A stretch of DNA of 64,000 nucleotides, taken from positions 62,001 to 126,000 of the forward strand of contig CDROCS010000452.1 of the NCBI GenBank assembly GCA_977020255.1, written 5' to 3'. Below are positions 6,770 through 45,222 of this stretch, one piece after another. The notes below the pieces were generated by a model that was given only the letters and a program-made list of their open reading frames with translations, ran no database searches and had not been told where the DNA came from. Positions within the stretch are counted from its first letter, which is position 1; each line of letters starts with the position of its first letter. Source of the stretch: Obrimoposthia wandeli. Its lineage: Eukaryota. The translations under genes were made by a program, and so were the position numbers.

Positions 6770-9350
6770 AATGGGGAAATATTTTAATGTAGGGTCGGAC
6801 CTTTTAGAAAACCTTCATTTATTAATTGACAGTAACAACAACGCATTAATTCCCCACACACAAAACACAACATTTCCAAATCAACACAAAATACAACACA
6901 TAGTCACAAAATCAAACCCACAAACTTAAACTTTTACAAATACATACTCATACACAATGTACAAATTCAAAACTCAACAACACTCCCATCAAAATAGAAA
7001 ACTAACACAACCAGATGCAAAATAGTACCATCAGGATATGCATTCCACGCAAAAGCTGACAACTACCACTAGACAAATTTACGGTCGCAAAAATAATCTT
7101 CGACAACATTTTAACAGAAAAAACATAAGACTTTATAAATCACCTTGGGCATCTGAGAAAAATATAGAGATATAGAGGAAAATGATGTAGAATGGAGATA
7201 TTGCGGAGACTACCGATCCCTGAACACTTTAACAGTTCCCAATACCACTCATTCACGACAGAACAGCAGTAGCAACAATCTTTTCAAACTTATATCTTAA
7301 ATCTGATTATCAACACATCCCCGCCAAAACCACGGACATAGAGTAAACTGTCGTTATCATCTCATTCGGATTATACGAACATTTAAAATTAAAGAATTCA
7401 GCATTTACTTACCAACGCTTTATGAAAACATCTTCGGATACGCCAAGAACGTCATACGCACATCGACAACATACACATAGCTAACCCAAACAGAAAACAA
7501 CATAAAATAACAATATTATAGAAAATAACGAACTAACATTAAACACTAAAAAATGTTCATACAGCAAGGAGAAAATAAACCTTTTAGAATATACTTTGTT
7601 CAAAGATGACATCAGTCCAAATACCATTAAACTCAAAACCGTCTTACAACTACACCCGCCACAGACAGTGAAACAACTACACAGATTACCTTGAATGGTC
7701 AAGTTTAATCATAAATATATTAAAACCTCAGCAGACATATTAGCACTAATAAACGAGATCCTTTAAAACAAAAACTCAAAAATAAAGTTCAACATTCAAC
7801 TCCAAGATTTCAACAACGCTAAAGAAGCACTTAAAACTACCACCACTTTTACAAGGCCTATATACAATGTGGAGATCCATCTAACCACTGACGCATCCAA
7901 CTTAACAACCAGAGCCGTACTGAATCAGATTATCAACAAACAAACGACACTTTCGGCTTTTTTCTCAAAAACACTTAAGACTCACCAAACTAAGTATTCA
8001 ACATACGACTGCAAACTACTACGAATATACCAAGCCATCAAATACTTCGAACACCAACTAATCGAAAAAATATTCACCATATACACAGATCATAAACCAT
8101 TTTTACACACATTACACATGAAAATTCCTTTGCTACAACAACAACTTAAATTAATTACATATCACAATTTAACACAAACATCAGATACATTATAGGCTTC
8201 ACAAAAAGTATCGCTGATACATCAATCAGACCATCCGGCATAGATCAAACATACACCATCAACACTATATACAACGTTTTCTAACCAAACAAACTCATCT
8301 GCAAAGAAAACTTACATGAATTCACAAACAATATATACAATATCACTTTGTGCAACAACATATGGTATGAAAATACAAACGGAAGCCTCGCCAGAATCAT
8401 ACTATCCCGAGAGTTAAACTAGAGGTGCTTTGCACAATTTTATAATATATATCATACAGGAATCAAAGGCACATACCAACTCATAAAACACCACCTCTTA
8501 TGACCCAACATGAAAAAGACACATAAAACTTCATCAAATCAGGTTCATCATGCAATATTTACAAATCACAGAAACACACTATCACAAAAACTTAAATGCA
8601 ACCAGCGATACACCTTACCCCAGACCTTGTAAGACCACTACCACTACATAGAACATATTCACACTTACTCACAATTATAGATAAAACATTAATTAGTACA
8701 GAGCCATACCCATCAAAAACGTATTAATACAAAGCATAATAAATAAAAAACATACACAGTTGTGAACTCTATTCGGATTTGCGACAAAGATCAAAACAGA
8801 CTAAGGACGACAATTCATCAGCAAAAAGTTCAACAAATATTGTAAAAGCCATCACAACGTACATGTACAACCCACAATCCAACCGTAAAATCGAACGATT
8901 AAACCGAAGCATCACAGAGTTAAGCATGTTTACAACAACCACACAACTGACCTAACACTATTCACACAATCATGACGAGAATACGCAACACACCTCACAA
9001 TAAAGACAACAAAAGCCCATCATATCGAACATTCAAAAACAACATTTCATGAATAACAACGACATAAACAAAACACAAAAATACATAAAACGTCATCCCC
9101 ATACATTCATCAAAGTTTCCCCATATTCCCCATACACCCGTCAACTGGAACCAAAATATGCTGGACCGTACAATATCAAACAATAAAACAACAATAAATA
9201 AAATAAATAAAAAACATACACTCATAAATAACTGAAACACAAAAAGCAATAATAGCTTTGAAATACAACAACAACAACAAAATGAAATTCCCACATTAGC
9301 AGCCCATTCAAACAACATACAACTAACCACATCATAAGCTGTACATTACC
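6770..9350 (+). mobile_element. Degenerate Gypsy/Ty3 LTR retrotransposon internal region (RT, RNase H, integrase)
   Basis: RT remnant PQTVKQLHRLP*MVKF; RNase H IHLTTDASN...AFFSKTL...KYSTYD...YTDHKP (ORF 7869-8195); integrase TD*GRQF, YNPQSNRKIERL and LEPKYAGPYNI. RT-RH-INT order is Gypsy-type. Confidence 0.88.
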
Positions 9351-13928: not shown

Positions 13929-16453
13929 CTGAATGAAAATGAGATCATGTCACTTTTATATTAATTGATTAGTAAACTGCTGCAAATTATCAGATTTTAT
14001 ATTTCATATTTTTATATCTTATTTTGAAAAAAATTGTCAGTTTAAATACATTTGTATATATTGAAATTAAAAGGCATTAAAGTTTTAGAATAATAAAACA
14101 ATACATTATAATTGAAGATGTTGAAGTCTATGATAAAAGTTACAATATGCAACATGATTTATTTTTATTAAATAGGACAATAAGTTTCTAAAGCAGAATT
14201 TTAACCTGACTTAAAATATTCTAAGCAAAACATATATTACAAAATACATTTAAATTCTTTGAACAAAAATCAACACAATCGCCTAGATTTGCTGGGTACA
14301 ATTTTCCTGAATATCGGTTCTCCGTTAATCGCATGTGCACTAATTCCTTAAACTGTCAGAGGACAAAGTCAGATAAGTAGTTTATAATGGCCGTGATATT
14401 CAAAAAATTCTAAAAATATGTAAATTTTAAACCAAATTTGGCAAGTTAAAAAGTGCCATGCACATCATTTGAACATTTAGCTCAAACACATCTGGGGAAC
14501 TATGGAGATCCAATAAATGAGAGCCTTATCAGTAAATTGTTGAATGGGATGAAATATGAACCTCAAACTTTACTTTCTGTATTCTCAATTGGATTTTTAC
14601 AGAGAATTTAGGAGCATTATTTAAAAACATGAAATACAAGGGCGATAAACTAGAATAATATGGCTAATTAATACTGGGATTTAAAAGGTTGTTGCCCAAT
14701 AAAATTACAACATACTATCTAAAAGGTAATCTTTACTAATACGTTTGTATATTTCTTAATATATTGTTTTGTATAAATAGTTTGTGTACACATTGCAAGA
14801 AAAATAAATTTGATAAAGAATTTTTTAGAGTGTATTTTTTCGAATTAGCATGAAATAAGTTAAAAACTAAAATTTTTATAAAAACCACAGAACAAAAAGT
14901 TATTTTGTTATCTAATGTTACTAATGCATAATTGAAAGAAAAACATTAAATAATAATATATTAATTCAAATTTTAACTATTTACCAAAATGTCATTTTTA
15001 AAGTTAAAATGGAAATTTAAAATTAATGCATGTGATTTAAAATAAATATTTTACTTTAAGTTTTGATTGACTTCATTTTACTTTTACTGGTCAAAATGTC
15101 AATAGTAAGCATGAAAAAGTTAGACAAAATGGACCATCCATTTAAAACATAAAATATTTTCATATTTTCTCAGGTAATTTATTTTATTATTATAAGATTT
15201 TTATACTTTTGAAAACGTTATATTGTTTGAAGGGATGATTATTATTAAATTCAGATATTCACATATACTGAATTCTGTTTTATGTGGTTATAGATGTTGA
15301 TAATTTCCTATTTTTATTTTAAAACACAAATCATATTACGTAATAGTACATTTAAATTACTAAGAACGAAGCAAGCTTAAAAAATATTCAATAATAAAAA
15401 AAATATTTTCCTCTAATTTTTTTGTTAAAAATTCTACTTGCCCAATGTTCAAAGATAAAAAACTTTAAACAGAAAAAATGGCATTTTTCATTAGAAACAA
15501 TAATTTTAGATCGCTTACTTCAACTCTTGGTAAACACTTCGGTTGAGGCGTATCTACTATAAGGGCCATAAAAACGAAACTGTTATAAGAAAATAGGGTA
15601 TTTATACTACAATACTGTGTTGAAGGATACTGTTGAATACTGTTCTTGAGAGATACTTTAAAATAAAAAGCACTCGAAATTTGGATCGAAGAATTTACTC
15701 AGAAAAGAGTTTCAATTTTAAAATGTATAAGCAACTCGGGGAATTGGAGCCCTCTAGTTCTTCAGGTTAGAATAATGATTCAGACATTTTGTGCTAGCAC
15801 GTTATGACTCACTGATTTTCTAAAGATATGCATTCCATAACCTAAAGAGAAAAAAAGTGAGATCGCATCAGCAGATGAAATACTTATTTTTTTACCATTT
15901 TTTTTCTATTTTAATTTATTGTTTAGATTTTGTGTGATTTTTGGTATGTTAATCAATTTCTGACAGTGTGCCACTAACTTATGAAATTGACTGTAGAACG
16001 GTTCTTTAATTTTCATAAAGAAAAACCATATCTATGCGTTTTTATGAGAGTTTCTATGGATTGCTTTTACCGCCTATGAACAGAATCCGGTGTACATACC
16101 ACATACAGGTCATACAATATAAGTGGTTCAATTTACGTTGCTTGACCAATATGCCCAAAATTATCTAAATTACAATTAAAATTTTATCAAAACAACATTG
16201 ATCATTTTTAAAAATTTAAATGTCTACTAAATTTTAGGTTTTGATTGTAACATATTTTGTATTAATATTTTTAGAAGCGGTGAAAATGAGAATCTTAGTA
16301 AAAATTCAAATTGCAACAATATAATTTCATTTAATTTTCTGAATCAAACATACATATTAATGGAAACAAAAAAGAAACAGAGAAAGAAGTGAATCTGAAT
16401 TGAGATTCGGTATAAAATTTCTGATCTAATTTTGTAATCATAGTGAATCTCAC

Positions 16454-16649
16454 CGGAAGATAAAAGCCGTTCATAATGAACTCGAGGTCCAGAATCATTA
16501 TGAAGACACCGAATAGAGCAAAAATGATAGAGTAATCCGTTAATCTCTTTCGCCGCTCAAATAACTCCTTTCTTTTGCCGAGACGGTAACCTACATTCCG
16601 GCTCATGGAAGATGATCCACCTTGATTCTTGTTATTGTAAGCATCACGT
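16454..16649 (-). CDS. KCNN: SK/KCNN channel exon (HA helix and S1)
   Basis: RDAYNNKNQGGSSSMSRNVGYRLGKRKELFERRKRLTDYSIIFALFGVFIMILDLEFIMNGFYLP contains the SK signature NVGYRLG.RK.LFE.RKRL.DY. Donor CCG|gtgaga. Acceptor catgcag|A (phase 2) chosen to fit the 50290 donor; an alternative acceptor lies at 16665. Confidence 0.92.
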
Positions 16650-16679
16650 CTGCATGGAGAAATTTCTGTTGAGAAGAGT

Positions 16680-16975
16680 ATGAGGATGAGAATGATGATG
16701 AGAATGAGAATGTAGATGAGGATGAGAATGTATATAAGGATGAGGATGAGAATGTAGACGAGGATGAGAATGAAGATGAGGATGAGGATGAGAATGTAGA
16801 CGATGATGAGAATGAAGATGATGATGAGGATGAGAATGAAGATGAGGATGAGGATGAGAATGAGAATGTAGACAAGGATGAGAATGTAGACAAGGATGAG
16901 GATGAGAATGATGATGAGAATGAGAATGTAGATAAGGATCAGAATGTAGATGAGATGAGGATGAAGATTAATTTA
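16680..16975. repeat. Complex GATGAG/GAGAAT microsatellite punctuated by AATGTAGAY
   Basis: About 300 bp of imperfect 3- and 6-mer repeats, directly visible. Confidence 0.95.
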
Positions 16976-20620: not shown

Positions 20621-21539
20621 CACAAAGATCAGCGAATCAATGGAAAATCAACATTTTGATGAAATAGACAAACTTCCATTGACTTTCTGTTTCTTTTCCA
20701 ATTACAAATCCAATCAATTTTAAACTTTATTCCAATCTTACACCGGTATATTCATCCATGTCTTCGAGTTTGGCTTTCTTCCACAAGATTATGTTGGTCT
20801 TTTGTATATGCTCAGTAGATCTTTGACAGCCAAATAAATACGCACCCTAGGAATATGCCGATAAAACAACGTGATTACATAATAGTTTAACTAAGAGTTC
20901 ATGGGCCTACAACCATCTTGATTCCACTCGTCTCTGGAGTCTGTTGTCAGGAGCACTGTCAAATATATGAGAACTTCGACGTTCTCTGTGAACACAAAAT
21001 TCAGATATAACACTAATATCCCTGATTTTGTCCCAAACACACAAATGCGAAAATTATCATCCATCTACCGAAGCTTTGCTAAACTCATACCGTATGTCAT
21101 GTTACTCATTATCGCTGAATAATTGATCAATAAAAAATGACACAAAAAACTCTGATAACGAATAAAATATAAATGAAATTGTGTAAAATTTTGAAAATAA
21201 TAGAAAAAGACCTTTTGCATACCAAGTGTTGTAGAGTTTGTAATGTGAATAAAAATCTATTAAAACTGAACATAATTATTATTTAATATTTTATTTTACT
21301 TCTTTTTTTCTTTTTAAATACTGGAATCATACACCTACACGGGTAATTTTCAAATAATGCATTACAATTAATTGCAATTAAAAACCTTGACTCATTTTAA
21401 TTGAAGCTTTTCATCACCATTCAATCAACACATAATCATACATCATATTTATATATCAGTTTTAAATTTAATATTCTAAATAATTATTTTAAAAAACCAG
21501 TGTTATATTTATCTTATTTGACGCTTTCAACTTACATAT

Positions 21540-21846
21540 TGTGACATTCACAGTGTGGGGGCTTCAAATTATCAACTTTGTTTAACTTCGGCAAATCGAT
21601 CGCCAGTCATGCATTAGGAGCCGAAAGACTAATCAAACGTTCTGGCAGCTGGGTTATTCCGAGGTTTCCCTGAGAATAGAGTAGTTATATCTAGGAAAGT
21701 GAATGATTAGAAGAGCTGGAGATGAAACATTCTCAACTTATTATCAAACTTTAAGTGGCTACAATATATCGCTTTCTTCATTGAAGTTGCACGATTAAAT
21801 ATGAATAATTAGTAGGTCATATTAGTAAACAGAACTGGTGACGAGG
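21540..21846 (+). mobile_element. Possible LTR (TG...CA) followed by a primer-binding-site-like motif
   Basis: TGTGAC at 21540 to AAACA at 21831, then gaac-TGGTGACGAGG. No second LTR copy seen. Confidence 0.3.
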
Positions 21847-24800
21847 AAATAACTTGAATGATGAGAACTGGTGAAAATTATGAAAATGGTGAAACGAAAG
21901 AATCACCGAAGGCGATTTTTTTGTGAACAAACTTAAAAAGTTCAGTTTTGGTCTAAAATTTGTTATAAATTGTAGTTTTAGACTATTATTTGGGTGCTGA
22001 ATAATTCAAGAGCAAAACGGAACCATCACAAACTGTGGCGCATATCATATATTTTTTAGAATCAAAAACGGGCCACCATTGTACAGACTTTCTTTTGCTG
22101 GGATCAGAGTTATTTCACTTCTTAAGGAAGCTTCTGGTGTGTGAGTTCTTGAGAGTATTAGGACTTGTGTGGAAGGCCTATCCTGAATAGTCTCAAATAT
22201 TCTGAAGGTTACTCGTTTTATGTTATTGTAGTGATGAAATATTATCTCTAGTTGCCACAATCTCATTATTATTAAATATGTCCTCGAAAATTAACAATGA
22301 ATCGTCTTCTTCTTAAGGATACAGACTTTATATTATTAAAATTAAACAATTATCCTAAATACACAAACTATCTGTTAATACGGTAAGTACAGCAATGGTT
22401 TAAATTCACAGTATACAAATGTATTGTGGGATTGAGTCATATTCCTCCTGTGGATTAAGTTTAGTTATAAGAGGCTTTGACCAGTACGGGTAGCTTTCAT
22501 TTTATATTTTTTTAACTAAAAAACAAGAGATGGATGCAGGTCAATAGTAATTACAATTTATTTATGATTTTACAAAATAAATTTCCTTATGATAGCCTCC
22601 CGTGGAGTTGGTATTTTGTGTTTTCTTGTAGAGAGAATTCTTCTTATATATACATTTATTTGTGATTCCTGGTTTGCCGACGACAGTCGTTCAGCAATGT
22701 TCTCTTCTCCTCTGGTGTGTCTTCTCAATATTCGTTCGATGTTCTTTCAATCATGGCAACCTGATGATTATGAATAATTACCATTACCATCTAATTAATT
22801 TTAAATTAGTGTTAGTAATTTGTTTTTCCCCTTTTAATTTAATGCCCTTAAAATGTTATTGGCCAGGATTATAAATAAAGACAAGTATTTTAATAAAATC
22901 GTCGATTTTTGAATCTTAACACTTTTACTATTCGATCAAAATATTCTACGGAATGCAAATTTGGATAACTTTATAATACCACCCAAACCATCACAATGAA
23001 CTATATTGCAGACATATAACTAGGCAATTTCAAACTCGGAAGCTAGGTTTCAGAGGTTAAAAACATTTTCAAACCAGATATAGCATTCATCAGCTGCTTC
23101 CTCTCTTTCGATGGGATCTGAATCGCAAGTTGGTTGGGACTGGATGGTTCCTGTTTATTTGTACTTCTTTACGACATTCTAAACTGTTGGAGAACTGAAT
23201 CACTCATTCATTAAATGTCCTGTAATTGAAGATTTGTTTTATTCCGAATATCTCTAGTAGAACTTGATTATCAAATCACTGATCTGATTCTCTGAATAAA
23301 TTAACATCCTAAACAATAATTAGAATAAAATTTGGATAATTCTTTTTAATTCACGAGGACTTTTTCATACAAAAAATGCAGAGTTTAGGTTTTTTGAAAT
23401 CAAGTAATTTTACAAAATTTTACATTCATCATTTTTTAAAATAACGTTGCTTGTAATGGATTAATAAATGTATCTATTTAGAAACAAATTAAAGATAATC
23501 ATAAGGCATGTGTTTAGATATTATATGTACAAAGAAAGTCGCAGGTGGGAATATCACGATGTATAAACCGAACTCGGAAACAGTATTGAGATCAAAGCGA
23601 TTATTCGATGATTTGCGTTCATGACGATTGCATTAATTAATACAGTCTGGATCGTGTCTAGGATAATTGAAATCATCATCAATCACTGTATCAAGTTAAT
23701 TATTTAATGGGACTAATAATGGATTTTTTGATAAAATTCTCTTATTAAATACGAAATTATAAACTAAAATGTATTTATTTCCATTGTATTCTTTGTGACA
23801 GAATTTAAGTCTCATCATAAAGTTTCAGTTAAAAGAAAGGTTATTTATAGTTTAATATAAATGCATTGAAACTCTATTGCGCTTAAGTCAGTATTTTATT
23901 AGAAACTGTTGTTATTCTATTTTTGGAGTCTTCTAACTAATTAATAGAAATAATATAATGATCACAACTACACATGTATTAAAGCTGCAATTTTTTTTCT
24001 TAATCAAAACATGAAAGATTCAATACGAATATTTGTTGTCTAAATCCATATATTTTTATTTCTTTCAACGATATATATATTTCCTCTGTGATATTTGAAT
24101 ACTTAACTAAAGTATAAAATAAACATACAAAAATGAATACAGGAATACCCCGATTATTGCAAATAATGCTGCTCAATTATGGCAGAAAAAACGCAATAAC
24201 TGAAACCACAATAATCGGGACCTATAACGTATGAAATATACAGTATTTGTACCGGGTTTTCGAAAATAATTTGAATTGAGAAGGAAGTAAATTAAAACGA
24301 AACATAATTTGAAACAATTATTTAATGCAGTTGTGCTTTAAAAAAGGTCATGAAACCATTAACGTTTTTTTAATATTGCTAACTTGTTTGGTTAGAATTT
24401 TTCGTCAAATATCACTTTATAACAGCTAATTGCACGGCCTATGTCTTGATGTACCTTCTTTGCACGATCAACCTCGGAATCTGCAGCATTTCTCTTTGAA
24501 TTCCTTTTGTAAAATGGGATTTCTAGAATTTGAATCAATTTGAACAAACTAATTTTCTAATTTTCAAAATTTTCATAAATACTTTAAAAATAAAATTTTG
24601 CTAATGAAAAACCGGCAACAAAAACATAAACTTCAATATTCATTAACGTTTCTTATTTAATACAAATTTAAGTTGGCTATAAAGTTATGTAATACTTTAG
24701 TGATCTATATAAACAAAAGTATTTATGGTATAAGACTTGAAATTTCCAAAACTACAGGACCAACGTGTGCATCATCTTTAATTCTTGATCATTATAAAAT

Positions 24801-24920
24801 ATAACAGTTTTGATATTTGGTATTTAATATTTTCGATCTGGAAATGAGTAACACTTTAGTTTATAGAAATTGCAAAGCTTGAAGAATTTGTAACGAATTT
24901 TGCCAACTTTAGAAAGTTGT

Positions 24921-25637
24921 TCAAACAAAATAACGGTATTCTGTAACATTATTAGTAATTTTAGATGCTGATATCCAAGTTGGGTCTGAATAACCATGCC
25001 ATTTAACATAGTATTGTTTATGTTTACCGGAACCCTGAGATTTTAATAATTTTTGAATACGGAAAACGCTAGGTTTATTTGATATTACTTTAAGTTCTTG
25101 CTCGTAAAATTTACCGCGAATGATAGTATTGTCAGCATCTTTAATAGTATACATTATTGGATTACTCCTTTGATCAATTTTACTTATACAAAATATTTAA
25201 TCGCTCCAATTCTGAGCAAAATTTTTAATAAAGGGAGTAGAGCTAATTTTCGAAATTCGAACATATTCGTTTTTCTTATATTTAGCTTTATTAATATTTT
25301 CTTTTTTATTCCTGTCTATCCAAATATCCATAGAGTTTTTATTAGTAACATCAACAGGTCTCATTCCCTTGAGACCTCTATGTTCAGAGTGATTATATGC
25401 ATGTATTATTTTAGGTAAAACTTGGATCCATTTTTTATTTCCTTCTTTTGTGAAATACTTTTTTATTCGATCTCTTAGAGTACGATTAAATCTTTCTACT
25501 ACTGCTGCTTTGTATTGTGAAAACACAGAGTAGTGATTTATATTATTTAGTTTAAATAATGATTGAACTTGCTTATTATAAAATTCTTTTCCTAAATCAG
25601 TTTGCACATTTTTAATATTGTTTATATTCGAAGCCAT
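24921..25637 (-). pseudogene. Polinton-type RVE integrase with C-terminal chromodomain, N-terminally truncated
   Basis: ORFs 25197-25637 and 24921-25154 are in the same frame, separated by one TAA (NWSD*IF). Motifs VQTDLGKEFYN, KAAVVERFNRTL, GKFYEQEL and the chromodomain YYVKWHGYSDPTWI. The first catalytic Asp region is missing. Confidence 0.92.
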
Positions 25638-25777
25638 TTAAGTTTTCTTTTACTTCGAACTACAGATTTGATTAATTTATACACTTCATTTTTCTTAATG
25701 ATTTTTTTTTATTTCTTAGGCTTTGCCTTTACATTACGTTTACGTTTTACTATCAACTTCTTAAAGGCATTGCAAAT

Positions 25778-26406
25778 TTATTTTTTATAATTGTTCTCTG
25801 TTTGTTTATAAACATTTACCACCTTAGAATTAAATATGTCTGTTAAAACACGTAAATATTCTGATCAAGCTTGTGTAAAGTCAATAAATATAACCCATGT
25901 GCTTGTTTAGCAGCATCATGGAATGAATCAACTAGAAAGTTCTTATTTTGGGGAAATACCTTTCAGGCTACGAAATCTACAACTGTTTGATGTCAAGGAT
26001 TTTTAAATAAAACTAAGAAATGTACATTAAGATCTCTTGTTCTATGATGACCTCTTTAGTGAAAAGAATTTTGAGTGATAAATATAACTGTTACTTCACG
26101 ATGTCTTGTAAAGTCCGATTCCTTGTTAGCTTTCTGATACAAATCATCAATTATTATTACATCTTCTTTTATCAATCTTTTTGCACCAATTTGCATCAAA
26201 TCCTTCAATAACTTTTATTCCCTTCAACTTGCAAACTTATGTTTGGGTTAATCCACTTTCCCCTCCTCCACCATGATGCCAATAAATATATGTTTTAAAC
26301 TAAAATTGAAATGAGATTCATTTTGCATCAATTAACATACGAAATGTGTCTTTCCACTTCCCCTGGGACTAACTATTTGAAATACAGCATTATTATATAG
26401 CTCCAT
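25778..26406 (-). pseudogene. Polinton A32/FtsK-like DNA packaging ATPase
   Basis: Manual translation across frameshifts gives Walker A IVSPRGSGKTHF, Walker B DVIIIDDLYQ, then TRHREVTVIFITQNSF, RTRDLNVHFLVLFKNP*H and DAAKQAHG/YIFIDFTQ, the typical motif order of this family. Several stops and frameshifts. Confidence 0.9.
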
Positions 26407-26442
26407 TTCATATACTCTTTCATTTTATTATTGTTTATATTA

Positions 26443-26743
26443 TCATAGAAGTTTCTTTATTGAAAGGTATACTGTCAGAGCTACTGTAGATGAAATACAA
26501 AAATTAATTAATGAATATTTGGCTAAAATTTTATTTATTTGTGTTCGATTTATAAAATCTTAAATAACATGTGATCTAACCAATATTTCAAATATTATCT
26601 CTTACTGTATCATTATTTTTTAATTTTGATACAATTTGTTTAACATTAATTTTTCCAAAAAAAATTTTGTCGAGAAGACGATCGACTTCATTGTCTGTAT
26701 TTATAGTATTACTAATTTGAAACAATAGTTTAAACGGATTTGT
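26443..26743 (-). pseudogene. Small Polinton ORF with hydrophobic C-terminal tail
   Basis: NPFKLLFQISNTINTDNEVDRLLDKIFFGKINVKQIVSKLKNNDTVRDNI/KYWLDHMLF/INRTQINKILAKYSLINFCISSTVALTVYLSIKKLL*, reconstructed with two frameshifts. Confidence 0.5.
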
Positions 26744-27171
26744 TTATAAAAAATATAACAAAATGTAATAAAATGTATTTTCTAAAAACATAGCGGTGTA
26801 AACTCCAAATATCTGAGAGCAGGAAAATTTTTCGGTTCAAACATGCATTCTTCTTTCATTTTCTCTGCAATTTTATAAAGATTTATTGCTTTCCTAAGAT
26901 TAACTATAATTGTGATTGGTTGTATGGGGCTGATTTGAATTCCAAAAATTGTAAATTGAACTCATTCAATGGTGTTTTGCATCCAAAAACACGACAACTT
27001 CCTAAAAGAATTCAATTTTTTAAAGTAAAATAAAAACTAACCTGAGGGGTAAATAACAACTGTGAAATCATCAAACTTTTTCACATATTGTCTCGGCTTC
27101 CAATCATTGAATGGTAAATACGAAATATCATCTTCTATTCTTCCTTTATAATTTATATTTACAAGTTTCAT
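26744..27171 (-). pseudogene. Divergent TBP-fold gene with a 40-nt intron (27041-27002)
   Basis: Spliced product MKLVNINYKG...KFDDFTVVIYPSG|SCRVFGCKTP...IQPITIIVNLRKAINLYKIAEKMKEECMFEPKNFPALRYLEFTPLC. It aligns by eye with TBP motifs LQNIV, LIFSSGKMVCTGAK, IQNMV and YEPELFPGLIYR. One frameshift near 26940 and an apparent deletion after PLC. Confidence 0.72.
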
Positions 27172-27447
27172 AAGATTAAAATTGTCTTCTGTAAATTCTT
27201 CTTTATATATGTCTGAGCCGGCTTTTTTATTGCACATTTCTTGTTAATATCTTGCAAACCTATTATAATTGGATGATATATTTCTTCCAATCAATTTCGA
27301 TTTTTAATATGAATTTAAACCATTCAAATTCAATGCTTTAGTTATATTAACCAATGAGTTTCATGTCTTTGTTACAAATTATTTTAAAATAATGCACCAT
27401 TTGAGGACAAATCATAATAAATGCATTTATATCAAAGACAATTATCA

Positions 27448-27903
27448 ATGATGGACGATAGCCACCGGATATTAAGCGGTGATGAAGATTTAGAAATGTT
27501 TGAAGAATCGGATAAGGATATGTATGAAGAAGTGAAACAATATTTCAAATACAAAGTCAGATTTCTCTAGAAGGCTTAACTGATTGCTTTAGTAAATCCT
27601 GTGATAATTGAAATAAGAAAGTTCAGCTATTATCTATCAAATATTCAAAATACAGATTTTCAATATCTAAAACAGAAAGTTGAAAAGGCAGTTCCAAATT
27701 TTACTTTGAATACGAACGAATTTTATATCTGAGGAGCTGATACAGCATTTCTAGATGACTATGGAAGAGAAATAGATGTTGATGTATTTCCGAAAAAGAA
27801 GCTATGTGCTGTAACAATTCGACTTTATGGTTACAAGAAAGATGAAATTGGAACAAAGTTATCTATGAAGAAAATTGAACATGCTCATATTCCTATGTTT
27901 TAA
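27448..27903 (+). pseudogene. Unknown Polinton ORF A (152 codons, 3 in-frame stops)
   Basis: ATG at 27448 to TAA at 27903 in one frame: MMDDSHRILSGDEDLEMFEE...FYI*GADTAFLDDYGREIDVDVFPKKKLCAVTIRLYGYKKDEIGTKLSMKKIEHAHIPMF. AATAAA follows at about 27927. Confidence 0.55.
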
Positions 27904-28068
27904 CTATTTTCTTTCATTTTACATGTAATAAATTGTAATCGGATTTATTCATTTTTACTATGTGTCTTACATTTGGCAATTAATAGTCAGTTTTATTTTT
28001 CATAATATTTGTATCTTATATGTATTTTTTTATAAACATTGTTTTTTAATCAGTTTCCTTATTTTAGA

Positions 28069-28393
28069 ATGGATCCTCTTCTGAGATATGTAGGGAATTT
28101 TTATTATCCTGAAAGAATTTAGAAAAGGAAAACCATGTAATATATTAAAGATGCATCAAATTATACGAGTTATGAATCCTGTGAAAATATCAAAAGTGGA
28201 GAATAAATATTTCATCGAAATTTTAACAACATCTGATATTGTATATGAAGGAAATTCTTTCCAGCTTGATACGGATTTTTAAAGATACCTGACTTTTAAA
28301 GATAATCTAAGATATTTGATTACTCCAATTTCAGATGAAGAACTATGGAATATTTCGATACGTCTCAATGAATATTTTGCTGATGCCGGTTAA
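28069..28393 (+). pseudogene. Unknown Polinton ORF B (about 107 codons)
   Basis: MDPLLRYVGNF/IILKEFRKGKPCNILKMHQIIRVMNPVKISKVENKYFIEILTTSDIVYEGNSFQLDTDF*RYLTFKDNLRYLITPISDEELWNISIRLNEYFADAG*, with one frameshift and one stop. AATAAA at about 28448. Confidence 0.5.
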
Positions 28394-28494
28394 ATGCAGC
28401 CTGTTTGGACTTTGAGTTAAGCCAATATGGTGTTTTATGTTTGATTTAATAAATGTTTTGAAAATAATTTTGACTCGTATTTTGTTTTTTTTCC

Positions 28495-28570
28495 TATAAA
28501 TTATATAAATCTGACCTAAACGTATTTTCTCTTATATATTATATAAATCTTACCTAAACCTATTTTTCCA
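28495..28570. repeat. Two-copy tandem repeat (ATTATATAAATCT.ACCTAAAC.TATTTT) at the right edge of the Polinton fragment
   Basis: Near-identical units at about 28500 and 28538. Confidence 0.7.
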
Positions 28571-29341
28571 TACCATTTATTTTTACTCGGTTCCTGTTAT
28601 TTTTAGATAATGTATTTTGTCCGTAGCCGGATTTTAACCACAACAACAGCAGCAGCATAGAATGAGAGATTTGTGAAGCAGAATCGACAAGCGCAATCTC
28701 TACAATAAATGAAAGTCAGAAAATAAATATTAAAATAAAATAAGTCTGATAGCATTATTATAAACTATTATAATAATCATTTATAATATCATCGACAACT
28801 AACTGTTCTAGAACTGAATTTATGTCAGTGATCCTCTAGTTCATTGATGCACCCTTTGTTCTTGGACTGTAAAATTGTTAAAACAGCAGAAAACTATCGA
28901 CCAGTTAAACAGCCGTTATTCTCTGGTATATTTACGAAATAAATAATTTTTTATTTTACATATAGGTAGTTTACTACTTTTGTTTATAAATAATATTTGT
29001 ATGATTAACATAATTTTAGTTTTTCAATGTTTTACACAAATTAAAAAAATCAAACACGTGAAAAAATTAAATAAAAATATTATATAGTTTTAGATCAGAT
29101 GTTGTTGACAATTGCCTCATTCAAAATGCTTCTGATACAGAATTATCAAACATTTATTTATTTTTATTTACTAGATGGCCGGTTCCTGCGATTCAAGAAA
29201 CATTTTGCATTTATGTTTTTTATAAATTATTAATTTATATATTGTTTTGTATTTTGATTTTTTTATAATAAAAAATGAACATTTTACTCTTTAAATAAAC
29301 CCTAAAATATATTTACTAAATAATTCAAGTATACAAAAAAT

Positions 29342-30104
29342 GGGGTAAAGAAAAGATGGCAATGGAAATAATGGCAATGGAAAAAATGGCAATGGAAAAA
29401 TGGCAATATGCAAAATATGGAAGAAATGGCAAACTTATTTTATTTTATAAAAAATAAAATAAATTAATAAGTAAAACCAAAAAATTATTATAAACAAAGA
29501 TACATTTGTTGTTCTCACATTTATTTACATTAAAATATTGTACAGTTATGCCATTTTATTTACACATTATATATAACCAAAAGCACATGTTTAATATTAT
29601 TCACACTATGCAGTCTTCGAGAACATCCTATCAACATGTAGATAGCATTTAAGCAAATAGTTCACTCATCAACCACTTGGTTACAATTTGAGATTGCCTA
29701 CATTTGAGATTTGAGAGAAGCCACTCTTTCAGAAGTGCAATTAGTTATTGTTGGTGCATTTGTTATCTAAATTTACTGTGATTATGACTTCATGGCTTCA
29801 TGTTTTTTAAATATTGACACATACATGTACTTAACAAATTTATTTTAACAAATAATCAATTCGCTGCTTAATATCTAAATATGTTACAGAAGCCACTCTT
29901 TGAAAAGCGCAATTAGTAATTTTTGCTGTAAGTCTTATGAACTACTGTATACATTTGTTGTGACTTCAAGGCATCATTTTTATACTTCTTTTTAATTAAA
30001 ATATTTATAATAACAAAAACAAAAATAATATTTTATCTTTGCCATTTTTTCCATTGCCATTATTTCCATTGCCATTATTTCCATTGCCATGTTTTCCTAC
30101 AACC
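29342..30104. mobile_element. Non-autonomous Mutator-like (MULE) element, 763 bp
   Basis: About 70-bp TIRs built from ATGGCAATGGAAA(T/A)A subrepeats. Perfect 9-bp TSD ACAAAAAAT at 29333-29341 and 30105-30113. Confidence 0.85.
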
Positions 30105-31329: not shown

Positions 31330-31700
31330 CTTAGAACAACTTTCATTTGATATCAACACAAAATATCCCATATTAGTATTGCAAAAACTGAGAAAACTTC
31401 TATGAACTTCCAGTAGACTTCCAGAGATAGATCTAGACAAAAAAAGTTGGAGGCTCATTATAAACAGTGCCACAACAAAAATGAGTATCGTCTTGTAATA
31501 ATAATATCTCTCTCTTGCTTCTAATACAATGTCAACAACCACAACATTCTGCTACTCCAGCCCATCTGTGAATTAGCAGAGCTCTTCCCCACACGCATAT
31601 TGTTGTCAGACAATGATGGTAAATAGACAATGCCTTCTGCACCAGAAACACTCAGGAGGCTGATACAAATATCGGTGGAGGGATTGGAGAAAATAAACAT
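31330..31700 (-). mobile_element. Possible LINE APE-endonuclease remnant
   Basis: Across frames: RWAGVA (compare R.GGGVA), CGTVYNEPP (compare G.VYRPP) and a MGYF remnant (compare GDFN), in the expected order. Confidence 0.35.
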
Positions 31701-44948: not shown

Positions 44949-45222
44949 TGTGTATTTCTAAAATTAATTTATATGAAAGATTTTCTTTTAAAACAGTTTT
45001 AGGCCATTGAAATAATATATTTAAAAACAAAATTAACATCAAAATATATAAAACAAATTATGCTTTTCAAAATTTGTTGAATCCAAATATCCAAAGAAAT
45101 AGTTAAAGCGTAATTTGTTTTATATATTTTGATATTAATTTTGCTTTTAAATATATTATTTCAATTGGCTAAAACTGTTTTTAAGGAAATTTTTTCATAT
45201 AAATTAATTTTAGAAATACACA
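44949..45222. repeat. Long near-perfect inverted repeat (fold-back element or MITE)
   Basis: Arms of about 117 bp (44949-45066 and 45105-45222) around a ~38-bp spacer; the outer ~30 bp match perfectly. Confidence 0.9.

Follow-up and report, generated by a model that had tools for sequence, protein, structure and literature searches.

A truncated, decayed copy of a high-copy Polinton family in Obrimoposthia wandeli, from a lineage with a compact TBP-like protein and probable short introns

Introduction

What kind of element left a cassette of broken genes in a 64,000-nucleotide stretch of the Obrimoposthia wandeli genome (the window), and how might its parent lineage have been expressed and multiplied? 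An initial annotation, made from the letters, described a compact bidirectional cassette at 24700..28600. Its tight gene packing and divergent arrangement were confirmed, but the limits had to be moved: the element starts at 24,961 and ends at about 28,550, a unit of about 3.6 kb. The intron, copy number, internal deletion, promoter box and identity of ORF A reported below were absent from that annotation.

Results

The repeat unit and its host setting

The following features were assigned.

24961..28550, no strand: whole repeat unit; truncated and decayed member of a Polinton family with a very high copy number
24961..25613, minus: C-terminal part of an rve integrase with chromodomain (residues about 131-349 of homologues)
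25614..25626, minus: junction of an internal deletion; about 0.9 kb gone, comprising a presumably pX-like gene and the integrase N-half
25622..25770, minus: short, broken basic (Lys/Arg-rich) ORF, sharing 50% identity with the basic ORF of L027 across 42 residues
25800..26406, minus: A32/FtsK-type packaging ATPase pseudogene, by homology to relatives' ATPases
26440..26722, minus: small, broken ORF with a C-terminal hydrophobic tail, positional homologue of relatives' ORFs
26788..27001, minus: TBP-like exon 2, with a frameshift near 26930-26945
27002..27041, minus: putative 40-nt GT-AG intron, phase 1, splitting the Gly codon in TBP repeat 1
27042..27171, minus: TBP-like exon 1, open, 42% identical to the L017 TBP over 43 residues
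27175..27426, minus: broken upstream ORF within the repeat, sharing the TBP frame
27448..27903, plus: ORF A, 3 stops, T7 gp2.5-like (OB-fold) single-stranded-DNA-binding protein (SSB) family
28069..28394, plus: ORF B, broken, no homologue found
28487..28566, no strand: right edge, where a 38-nt unit occurs twice, without a recognisable Polinton terminus
16453..16665, minus: host SK potassium-channel exon (context, outside the element), Pfam 40.4 bits, with splice acceptor

Depth was analyzed on 91,145, 129,278 and 96,230 contigs from three runs of the organism. In run X1, summed depth over 24893-28546 was 0.69-2.48 million compared to 64-106 in single-copy bins, and the element exceeded its flanks at least 10,000-fold in all three runs, although depth summed over contigs does not equal copy number. 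From this very deep stacking of reads relative to the flanks, we estimate hundreds to thousands of copies of the family. The left edge was sharp, with single-copy contigs reaching 24,989 and 24,975 from the left flank, and the right edge lay between about 28,480 and 28,568; unique contigs on the left stopped at 24989 and those on the right began at 28539. Both flanks were single-copy DNA, and depth dropped where Polinton homology ended. A small ORF counted as part of the element, together with the final residues of the integrase ORF, is therefore host DNA, as it lies on single-copy contigs with flank-level depth over 24632-24892. A loose end at 24961 was observed in 107 contigs of run X2 and 79 of run X3, which run on past this point into an apparent penton-like start; the presence of longer copies in the organism is supported. 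On the left the copy is cut off within the integrase stop region. No TIR pair was found in the window, as previously annotated, and no TSD was seen.

The element had been placed in an ion-channel intron. The SK exon was confirmed at 16665-16453, with the element on its 5' side and probably intronic. This placement is plausible: candidate upstream exons were found near 31,660 and 50,290, the latter without a direct in-frame join to the SK exon. The single integrase stop had been taken as a sign of moderate age. This age argument, drawn from the integrase alone, was not supported, and a single stop understates the decay, with at least five stops, three frameshifts and, near 26108, a short in-frame deletion in the ATPase, three stops in ORF A, and in the TBP copy the frameshift and the loss of the last 35 or so residues of the family protein after 26788. 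The copy in the window is dead, a fossil without evident function.

Gene content and lineage

Near-complete metagenomic relatives (L006 and L017) showed a gene order much like that of the window. As in the window, apart from its deletion, an SSB-like gene in L006 faces away from TBP, which is followed by a membrane ORF, ATPase, a basic ORF, a pX-like gene and integrase; in L006, pentons, capsid, protease and polymerase come next. The capsid and penton are the relatives' ORFs of 403 aa and about 340 aa, which we take to be such from size and position; neither had a Pfam match. The annotated ATPase was confirmed as a packaging type: it was 70% identical to that of L027, and the L006 homologue matched Pox_A32 above the cut-off. 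The integrase was 62-66% identical to its top homologues. The two genes each fell within one and the same clade of 16 rows (support 98 and 99), both grouped with L027 and L003 (weak support, 82-83), and their identity ranks were correlated (rho 0.78, n=19). The sequence comparisons thus support the view that the ATPase and integrase represent one Polinton/adintovirus lineage, and the earlier description as a fragment of such a lineage was upheld by phylogeny and gene order alike.

Within the clade (window and L001-L032), rve and Pox_A32 matches were found in L006, Peptidase_C5 in L025 and L028, and protease homologues in L006, L007, L008, L012 and L017; a single element can thus hold an integrase of the rve type, an A32-type ATPase and an adenain protease. 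The window contained no polymerase, capsid, penton or protease in tblastn with relatives' proteins to E=1, consistent with the initial annotation, and since it lacks a match to the L006 and L017 polymerases the copy is a fragment and not an intact Polinton/Maverick. Those polymerases had no PF03175 match at E 0.01 and scored 22-23 bits for Endonuclease_7, just under the cut-off of 23.6. No TIR was found in L001, L006, L008, L017 and L025, whose contigs are probably incomplete; no OTU Pfam match was found in the relatives scanned, and no TFIIB match among 16 L006 ORFs scanned.

The gene set had appeared peculiar to this copy, yet the TBP, SSB-like, membrane and basic ORFs proved to be features of the clade. 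The tail-anchored and basic ORFs were present as annotated, in the order of L006. Counterparts of the tailed ORF (87-107 aa) lie between TBP and ATPase in L006, L011 and L027, with weak identity of 32-37% over about 80 residues and no tblastx match. The basic ORF is probably a core protein. ORF A had an L017 homologue at E 3e-6 in a family of 88 members, tied to the family of homologue P0210 by hhalign (98.5%, E 4e-15). This family had no Pfam match. A model of P0210 (pLDDT 96) placed DUF2815, Enc34 SSB, T7 gp2.5 and ASFV CP312R as the top four of 48,161 chains, with Z of 6.7-7.3 (all under 8; next 5.1); Foldseek alone gave E 0.13. The OB fold is shared over 104-112 residues (rmsd 3.0-3.9) at 3-10% identity, a likeness that comes from the model. 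On this model ORF A is a gp2.5-like SSB family member with predicted single-stranded DNA binding. No homologue was found for ORF B or the upstream ORF, both within the repeat. The AATAAA words reported after ORF A (27927) and ORF B (28448) are present but weak as signals, because the window holds 388 of them.

An internal deletion in the integrase

The distance from the basic-ORF stop to the QTD motif was 869-934 nt in L006, L007, L027 and L032 and about 20 nt in the window, indicating, from these four relatives, a deletion of about 0.87-0.93 kb. The integrase-chromodomain and its one stop (25197-25199) were confirmed, but its supposed near-intactness was not: residues 1-130, including the first catalytic Asp, are missing, leaving the DDE triad incomplete, and the last few codons are lost at the left edge. 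The gene upstream of the integrase, which we take to be pX-like, is gone, and its TATAAAC box is still present at 25620-25626. Among the six best-supported loose ends per run in three runs, none lay near 25,620, while loose ends at 26108/26109 appeared in all three. The deletion is probably common to most copies, judging from the absence of its junction among the best 24 loose ends, beyond which there are 8,350 more. In that case the form that was amplified would not be autonomous and would have been mobilised in trans.

A putative mini-intron in the TBP-like gene

The annotated TBP-like gene was confirmed by Pfam TBP (24.6 bits, cut-off 22.9) on 26785-26961. The 40-nt segment between its exons corresponds to L001:376-415 in codon, phase and length, with 20 of 40 letters alike. 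It is absent from L005, L006, L017, L025 and L027, and the window flanks are collinear with these intronless relatives. A GT start and AG end occurred in 460 of 200,000 random 40-mers of the window (0.23%); the donor, GTTAGT, is weaker than the strongest form. No 40-nt skip was present among the 15 joints listed and no listed loose end fell at the intron, though the small private lesions of the window do show, which argues that the segment belongs to the family. Relatives carry predicted introns of 37-53 nt in protease and polymerase genes: the protease intron follows ATG plus 2 nt in 7 of the 17 loci that gave a protease match, and the L017 polymerase 5' region stays in frame through three phase-1 introns. 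With GT..AG ends at a conserved position in a collinear frame, the segment is best read as a U2-type intron that would be spliced. In the integrase tree the window and L001 were not sisters, and the TBP tree gave no resolution. According to PMC8097293, intact vertebrate elements showed no introns, and 10.1101/2022.07.12.499685 places introns in cargo only.

TBP fold and the TATAAAC box

The family TBP model (from L006; pLDDT 96.8) formed a two-repeat saddle that matched TBP at Foldseek E 2e-10 and TMq 0.74. A coil replaces helix H2 at residues 53-62, and the helix H2 with basic cluster of eukaryotic TBP was not found; the H2-region linker had 17-24 residues in 72 of 75 rows compared to 32 counted on a microsporidian TBP alignment. 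PMC7221094, in the part cited here, describes the roles of the H2 and TFIIB-contact surfaces of TBP and H2 as the docking site of Mot1/BTAF1, TAF1, TFIIA and Brf. The TFIIB-binding glutamates were kept (E97 in 75/75 rows, E99 in 74/75). On the DNA face, the first Asn and three intercalating Phe were nearly invariant; the first intercalating Phe had no Phe counterpart, with a near-invariant Pro (74/75) about there in an alignment by eye. Compared with cellular TBP (PF00352; PDB 1cdw, 1ytb), the whole saddle fold (TMq 0.74-0.79), the C-lobe Glu-Pro-Glu stirrup and three of four intercalating Phe are shared, whereas the family protein has about 149 aa instead of about 180, a short loop for H2, a changed N-lobe stirrup and no N-terminal extension. 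The model suggests a protein that works like TBP without being a cellular TBP, with TATA binding and TFIIB recruitment predicted.

TATAAAC occurred within 70 nt upstream of 8/9 ATPase, 7/7 pX-like, 3/3 basic and 5/7 capsid genes, against a background rate of 6.3%, and upstream of 0/5 TBP, 0/3 SSB and 0/9 integrase genes. The early/late split was not clean: the box was missing from the protease (0/5), second penton (0/2) and L006 membrane ORF (0/1), and present at the L006 polymerase and 4/4 exonuclease-like genes. In the window it lies 33 nt upstream of the ATPase, 40 nt upstream of the basic ORF, at 26742-26748 upstream of the tailed ORF and 38 nt upstream of ORF B (28031-28037). The element contains six copies compared to 2.3 in shuffles and 2.8 in flanks, a weak excess by itself. 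Across the divergent clade the box is constant up to its seventh base. TATAAA words are also bound by host TBP.

Discussion

We consider it fairly likely (about 0.7) that this dead, truncated copy derives from an amplified nuclear Polinton lineage that spliced its transcripts and steered host Pol II with its own TBP. The parent lineage would replicate and be transcribed in the nucleus with host Pol II and spliceosome, as suggested by GT-AG introns of 37-53 nt that are conserved in its TBP, protease and polymerase genes. Expression would begin with the box-less genes (TBP, gp2.5-like SSB, integrase); the compact TBP would then bind TATAAAC in front of the packaging and virion genes, bringing in host Pol II together with host TFIIB, the SSB may serve strand-displacement synthesis by the protein-primed polymerase, and the integrase-deleted form would be mobilised in trans. 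A wider picture, of an animal Polintovirus clade with an early-to-late cascade, minimal TBP, mini-intron gating and an integrase-defective derivative at thousands of copies, is put forward only tentatively. In that picture the TBP lost the surface used by all host TBP regulators and kept the host-TFIIB contact; host-sized mini-introns gate TBP, maturation protease and polymerase; the clade is widespread; and a non-autonomous Polinton is a major genome component of this host.

An ordinary truncated fossil, whose integrase and TBP deletions followed insertion while the family was amplified full-length and autonomous, stands a real chance, though one short of even. Many copies run past 24,961 into the penton-like gene, a marine-metagenome piece (26086-26727) diverges from the window at the TBP end, the right edge also has no listed loose end, so that such lists can miss junctions, and 96% of vertebrate Mavericks are degraded according to the cited part of PMC8097293. 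However, 25,620 is not among the best six loose ends per run, while smaller private lesions at 26108, 27563 and 25857 are. A reading in which the TBP is no late-gene activator, host TBP reads TATAAAC and the viral protein is a decoy titrating host TFIIB or shutting host genes down is doubtful. The box is a canonical-type TATA box with an imperfect distribution, and the family has no Phe to match the first intercalating one; yet the other three Phe and first Asn are nearly invariant, and the box avoids the TBP gene and is fixed to its seventh base.

Amplification of the 3.6-kb piece as cargo of another mobile element or in tandem arrays seems improbable. The lack of a TIR or TSD and a copy number far above the vertebrate maximum fit it, but the flanks are single-copy, the high depth and the Polinton homology end together, and other copies continue into Polinton-like sequence. 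A chance insertion or small passenger in a simply broken TBP gene is even harder to credit: a GT..AG 41-mer also arises by chance in coding ATPase at 26340 and the donor is not of the strongest form, whereas L001 shares codon, phase and length with a different inner sequence, the flanks match intronless relatives, chance GT..AG ends are rare, and the clade's protease and polymerase genes have similar introns. The least credible reading, in which 25,620 is where the ATPase of one element meets the integrase of an unrelated one, is already largely refuted. The junction is the deletion point and the integrase is less damaged (1 lesion in 217 codons compared to 8 in 200, p=0.017), but both genes share relatives and one strongly supported clade, the missing gene's promoter box is still in place, and depth is high on both sides.

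Among known systems, the preferred amplified nuclear lineage is closest to Polintons/Mavericks, that is adintoviruses (Polintoviricetes), and among them perhaps to the Beta/pPolB2-like type (parts of PMC8502044, 10.1101/2023.08.22.554363, 10.64898/2026.06.19.733378). Chromodomain integrase, A32-type ATPase, adenain protease, compact overlapping genes and integration in animal DNA are common to both, and the long polymerase of L006 and L017, with its EndoVII/HNH-type match just below the cut-off and no PF03175 match, may be a further likeness. Unlike them, this clade carries putative short GT-AG introns in TBP and in the core protease and polymerase genes, and has a compact TBP and a gp2.5-like SSB as features of the clade; TBP is named once in the cited part of PMC8502044, in the Fig. 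5 legend. Copy number is well above the vertebrate median of 8 and maximum of 287 given in PMC8097293 (cited part). Nucleocytoviricota TBPs and beta/gamma-herpesvirus TATT-binding proteins are likewise virus-encoded TBP-like factors (parts of PMC7221094, PMC4893493), for which, as here, direction of late genes through an own box and escape from Mot1/BTAF1 are proposed. Viral TBPs among BFVD matches have 170-1,200 aa and are 8-22% identical to the family TBP; giant-virus TBPs, as far as the sources cited cover them, have mostly lost the TFIIB glutamates (about 40% kept) and have their own TFIIB, whereas the family TBP keeps both. Dinoflagellate Polinton-like elements also contain spliceosomal introns inside integrated viruses, described in the cited part of PMC11957031 as introner transposons and mostly post-integration gains, whereas the introns of the present clade keep their positions across divergent elements and are unrelated in sequence.

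The conserved introns bear on how Polinton genes are expressed and on whether Polintons replicate independently in the nucleus, as they tie the clade to nuclear Pol II and spliceosome. Owing to these introns, open-frame surveys miss its protease and TBP genes. An H2-less TBP with TFIIB glutamates and a fixed promoter box offers a small testable system and a natural minimal TBP. At hundreds to thousands of copies, the family would exceed the vertebrate range and would let insertion waves be dated.

Organization and limits of the element

Six-frame reading bore out the packed, divergent cassette reported in the initial annotation. The TBP-like gene was supported by Pfam (24.6 bits against a cut-off of 22.9), the Chromo and rve_3 matches in the window were under the cut-off, and the upstream ORF and ORF B yielded neither a Pfam nor a tblastx match. 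When the 64 kb, flanks included, were searched by tblastn with proteins of relatives, polymerase, capsid and protease were not found, as claimed, nor was penton; no TIR pair was found in the window either, again as claimed. At 27426-27448, only ~22 nt separate the first ATGs of the divergent ORFs. This leaves too little room for two promoters, so that probably one start, if not both, is mis-called.

The left edge of the element was located at 24,961, where 107 and 79 contigs continued with different letters; beyond this position, other copies resembled the opening of a penton-like gene as found in the relatives. Since the "small ORF" formerly counted in the cassette lies outside this edge, it belongs to host DNA. 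On the right, the element ends between ~28,480 and 28,568. CpG observed/expected was 0.76 in the element versus 0.83-0.85 in the flanks, a slight difference that says little.

The host gene, as indicated by Pfam, is an SK (potassium) channel on the minus strand, whose exon at 16665 starts at an acceptor. Candidate upstream exons were found at ~31,660 and 50,290, the latter being phase-compatible with the former and not directly with the SK exon. The location of the element in an intron of this gene is likely. Other features of the window were as follows.

Further features outside the element
7767-8195, plus strand: frame of 142 aa, presumably a Ty3/gypsy RT-RNase H relic, judging by its motifs
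16670-16968: degenerate 6/18-nt tandem array immediately upstream of the SK exon acceptor, for which it provides an extended pyrimidine-rich stretch when read on the minus strand
21761-22282 and 24110-24631: left-flank repeats of lower copy, summed depth 2,000-17,000 in X1, a sequencing run of organism A
29350-30097: MITE-like element of ~750 bp, with 69-nt inverted arms (86%) made of 15-nt tandem units
44949-45222: inverted arms of 118 nt, 92% complementary, with a 38-nt spacer; hairpin or MITE-like

Relatives and gene order

Among 823 candidates, the integrase search found 569 proteins at E<=1e-5, with identities of 62-66% for the best; the window integrase aligned only with residues ~131-349 of full homologues. 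With the integrase alignment, 104 metagenomic stretches were recovered and 80 retained. One near-complete relative, L006 (14.2 kb), carries an E2 enzyme, a small ORF and an SSB-like gene on one strand. On the other strand are an acidic ORF, TBP, membrane ORF, ATPase, basic ORF, pX-like gene, integrase, two penton-like genes, small ORF, capsid-like gene, protease and exonuclease-like gene, after which comes the polymerase. The pX-like, penton, capsid and exonuclease-like labels are tentative, being based on position. A second near-complete relative, L017, has a similar plan, except that its SSB-like gene shares the strand of TBP. Gene-order comparison showed that the cassette of the window corresponds to the left half of this plan, with ~0.9 kb missing from the interval that separates the basic ORF from the QTD motif.

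In the integrase tree (62 rows), the window integrase fell within a 31-row clade with support of 100/99. The ATPase and integrase proved to be of one lineage, as the initial reading required: for the 19 loci that have both genes, a single clade of 16 rows included the window copy in either case (support 98 and 99), and the identities of the two genes correlated (rho 0.78). The L006 and L017 polymerases had no PF03175 match and an EndoVII match below the cut-off, which fits Beta/pPolB2 as outlined in the available text of PMC8502044 and 10.1101/2023.08.22.554363 but does not prove it. An EndoVII/HNH-type motif was seen in both (L006 10212-14105, L017 9125-12391); the available part of 10.1101/2023.08.22.554363 describes an HNH insert as particular to the pPolB2 of nematodes and oomycetes.

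The viral contigs searched yielded no integrase or capsid relatives and one distant TBP candidate (L081), and the prokaryote genomes searched yielded no TBP and three short candidate integrase contigs (L082-L084). In the ESM Atlas, only sub-threshold leads were obtained for the L006 membrane ORF and the L017 SSB homologue.

Accessory genes were also observed. In L006, the region 222-957 holds the E2 ubiquitin-conjugating gene (Pfam 47.6 bits) and, after it, a pair of adjoining hairpins (794-883, 884-957), and dual-specificity phosphatase and RING-finger genes (L008 952-1260; L001 1710-2168) lie closely upstream of the relatives' ATPase. Tandem penton-like paralogues, two each, occur in L002, L003, L006 and L074; most other relatives have one.

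TBP family and ORF A

Among 103 candidates, 89 formed one TBP family, mostly of 145-160 aa, a count taken without gene context that intron-split genes would escape. The L006 TBP model (75 rows, pLDDT 96.8) matched cellular TBP across the whole saddle, with a predicted coil in place of helix H2. In all but three of the 75 rows, the linker at the H2 site was 17-24 residues long, versus 32 counted on microsporidian TBP. E97, F101 and F117 were invariant, and E99, F42 and N4 were kept in 74 of 75 rows. According to the available text of PMC7221094, the H2 basic cluster serves TFIIA, BTAF1/Mot1, Brf and TAF1, and two C-lobe glutamates serve TFIIB. Giant-virus TBPs, as described there, have mostly lost these glutamates and bring their own TFIIB, whereas the present TBP family retains E97 (75/75) and E99 (74/75). 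No TFIIB match was found among the 16 L006 ORFs scanned. The accessible portion of PMC8502044 names TBP nowhere but in the legend of Fig. 5, and one supplementary file contains none of the terms TBP, intron, splice and TATA.

ORF A itself gave no match in a word-seeded search. Through L017 and a profile search, ORF A was tied to L017 and L006 ORFs and to an 88-member family. The best matches of the family model (pLDDT 96) were four gp2.5-type SSBs (Z 6.7-7.3; next 5.1), and Foldseek also placed gp2.5 first, but with E 0.13.

TATAAAC promoter box

The TATAAAC box was examined on 10 hand-chosen loci, against a background of 6.3%; one penton start among them was mis-set, not being an ATG. It was found upstream of the ATPase (8/9), pX-like (7/7), basic (3/3), exonuclease-like (4/4) and capsid (5/7) genes, the first penton (3/5) and the small ORF before capsid (2/7). 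In L006, it also preceded the polymerase, acidic ORF and left small ORF (1/1 each). At the same loci, no box was present before TBP (0/5), SSB (0/3), integrase (0/9), protease (0/5), second penton (0/2), membrane ORF (0/1) or E2 (0/1). The window copy has five distinct boxes, one each ahead of the membrane ORF, the ATPase, the basic ORF, the gene lost by deletion and ORF B. In beta/gamma-herpesviruses, the TATT-binding protein for late genes offers a parallel to the combination of clade TBP and box, as described in the available part of PMC4893493.

Putative introns

A 40-nt GT..AG segment (27041-27002) interrupts a Gly codon of the first TBP repeat. In the relative L001, this codon is split in the same phase by a GT..AG segment that is also 40 nt long, with 20 of 40 letters alike, and TBP is continuous at this site in L005, L006, L017, L025 and L027 (L034 was left out of the comparison). 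By chance, GT..AG ends occurred in 460 of 200,000 random 40-mers. The 40-nt skip was absent among the 15 joints listed of 1,302 in organism A reads.

Seven of the 17 loci with a protease match (five distinct sequences) have GTAAGT directly after ATG plus two bases, with an in-frame acceptor 37-47 nt on; in six of these seven, an in-frame ATG is otherwise missing. This putative intron was not found in L025, L028 or 8 distant loci. The L017 polymerase 5' region has three putative phase-1 introns (45, 53 and 49 nt), with every exon open. More candidates of 40-48 nt were noted in accessory genes and the protease 3' end (L001 +1303, which links two frames; L001 -83; L012 +5651). A GTATGT..AG 41-mer at 26340 was ruled out as an intron, relatives being coding there, and a systematic HSP-gap scan was discarded as noisy, having missed the L001 positive.

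The candidate TBP intron may reflect ancestral presence with losses, parallel gain or module exchange. All three are possible because the window and L001 are not sisters in the integrase tree and the TBP tree gives no resolution (95 rows; five window-row residues beside the frameshift came from the wrong frame). Intact vertebrate elements have no introns in the available account of PMC8097293, and the accessible text of 10.1101/2022.07.12.499685 places introns in cargo only, in contrast to the putative core-gene introns of the window clade. Introners in dinoflagellate elements are described in the part of PMC11957031 at hand.

Decay, internal deletion and copy number

The single stop claimed for the integrase was confirmed, although only residues ~131-349 of its homologues are present. 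In the ATPase, 3 frameshifts and a short deletion accompany a minimum of 5 stops. ORF A has 3 stops, and the TBP-like gene has a frameshift and has lost its last ~35 residues. Neither the integrase nor the ATPase nor the TBP of the window copy is functional. Lesions numbered 1 in 217 codons in the integrase part (24961-25613) versus 8 in 200 in the ATPase (p=0.017, one post-hoc test); this contrast may be due to chance, gene conversion or constraint.

Small private lesions of the window copy appeared as loose ends in organism A reads. Near 25,620, the junction of the ~0.9-kb deletion, none was seen in any of the three runs among the 24 loose ends listed (8,350 more exist), and the right edge was likewise missing among those listed. 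Since private lesions appear as loose ends and the junction does not, these results suggest that the deletion is common to most copies, a reading to which we give roughly two chances in three.

Four of five runs were compared with 21500-29300 at 80% likeness, X1-X3 being one sample of organism A, which may be where the window comes from. Summed depth in X1 was 0.69-2.48 million over 24893-28546; for comparison, single-copy bins gave 64-106 and unique contigs 45-47. The same step was seen in X2 and X3. Summed contig depth is not copy number, and short-contig overlap could inflate it up to ~31-fold (reasoned from 31-letter words). Because inflation is at most of this order, several hundred copies are still left, and probably there are thousands. 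In X1, 91,145 of 7,274,543 records matched the region, mostly 90-99% alike. X5, from one marine metagenome study, contained pieces ~90% alike across 25781-28203 and does not identify the host. In the available text of PMC6431247, Mavericks are cited as occupying as much as 30% of the Trichomonas genome; high copy number therefore has a protist precedent.

Proposed expression and significance

Established here are the identity, limits, decay and very high depth of the element, with intron anatomy, folds and box distribution. Elements of this lineage would be transcribed in the nucleus by Pol II with splicing, and TBP, SSB and integrase would be expressed first. The viral TBP and host TFIIB could then act at TATAAAC for packaging and virion genes, SSB would assist strand displacement, and the deleted form may be mobilised in trans. 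Overall, the observation in the initial annotation was partly confirmed and its interpretation partly supported. In the literature searched, the clade, H2-less TBP, box, SSB and core-gene introns in animal Polintons were not described; supplements and subscription papers may hold such an account. The value of the finding lies in the lineage, not in the dead window copy.
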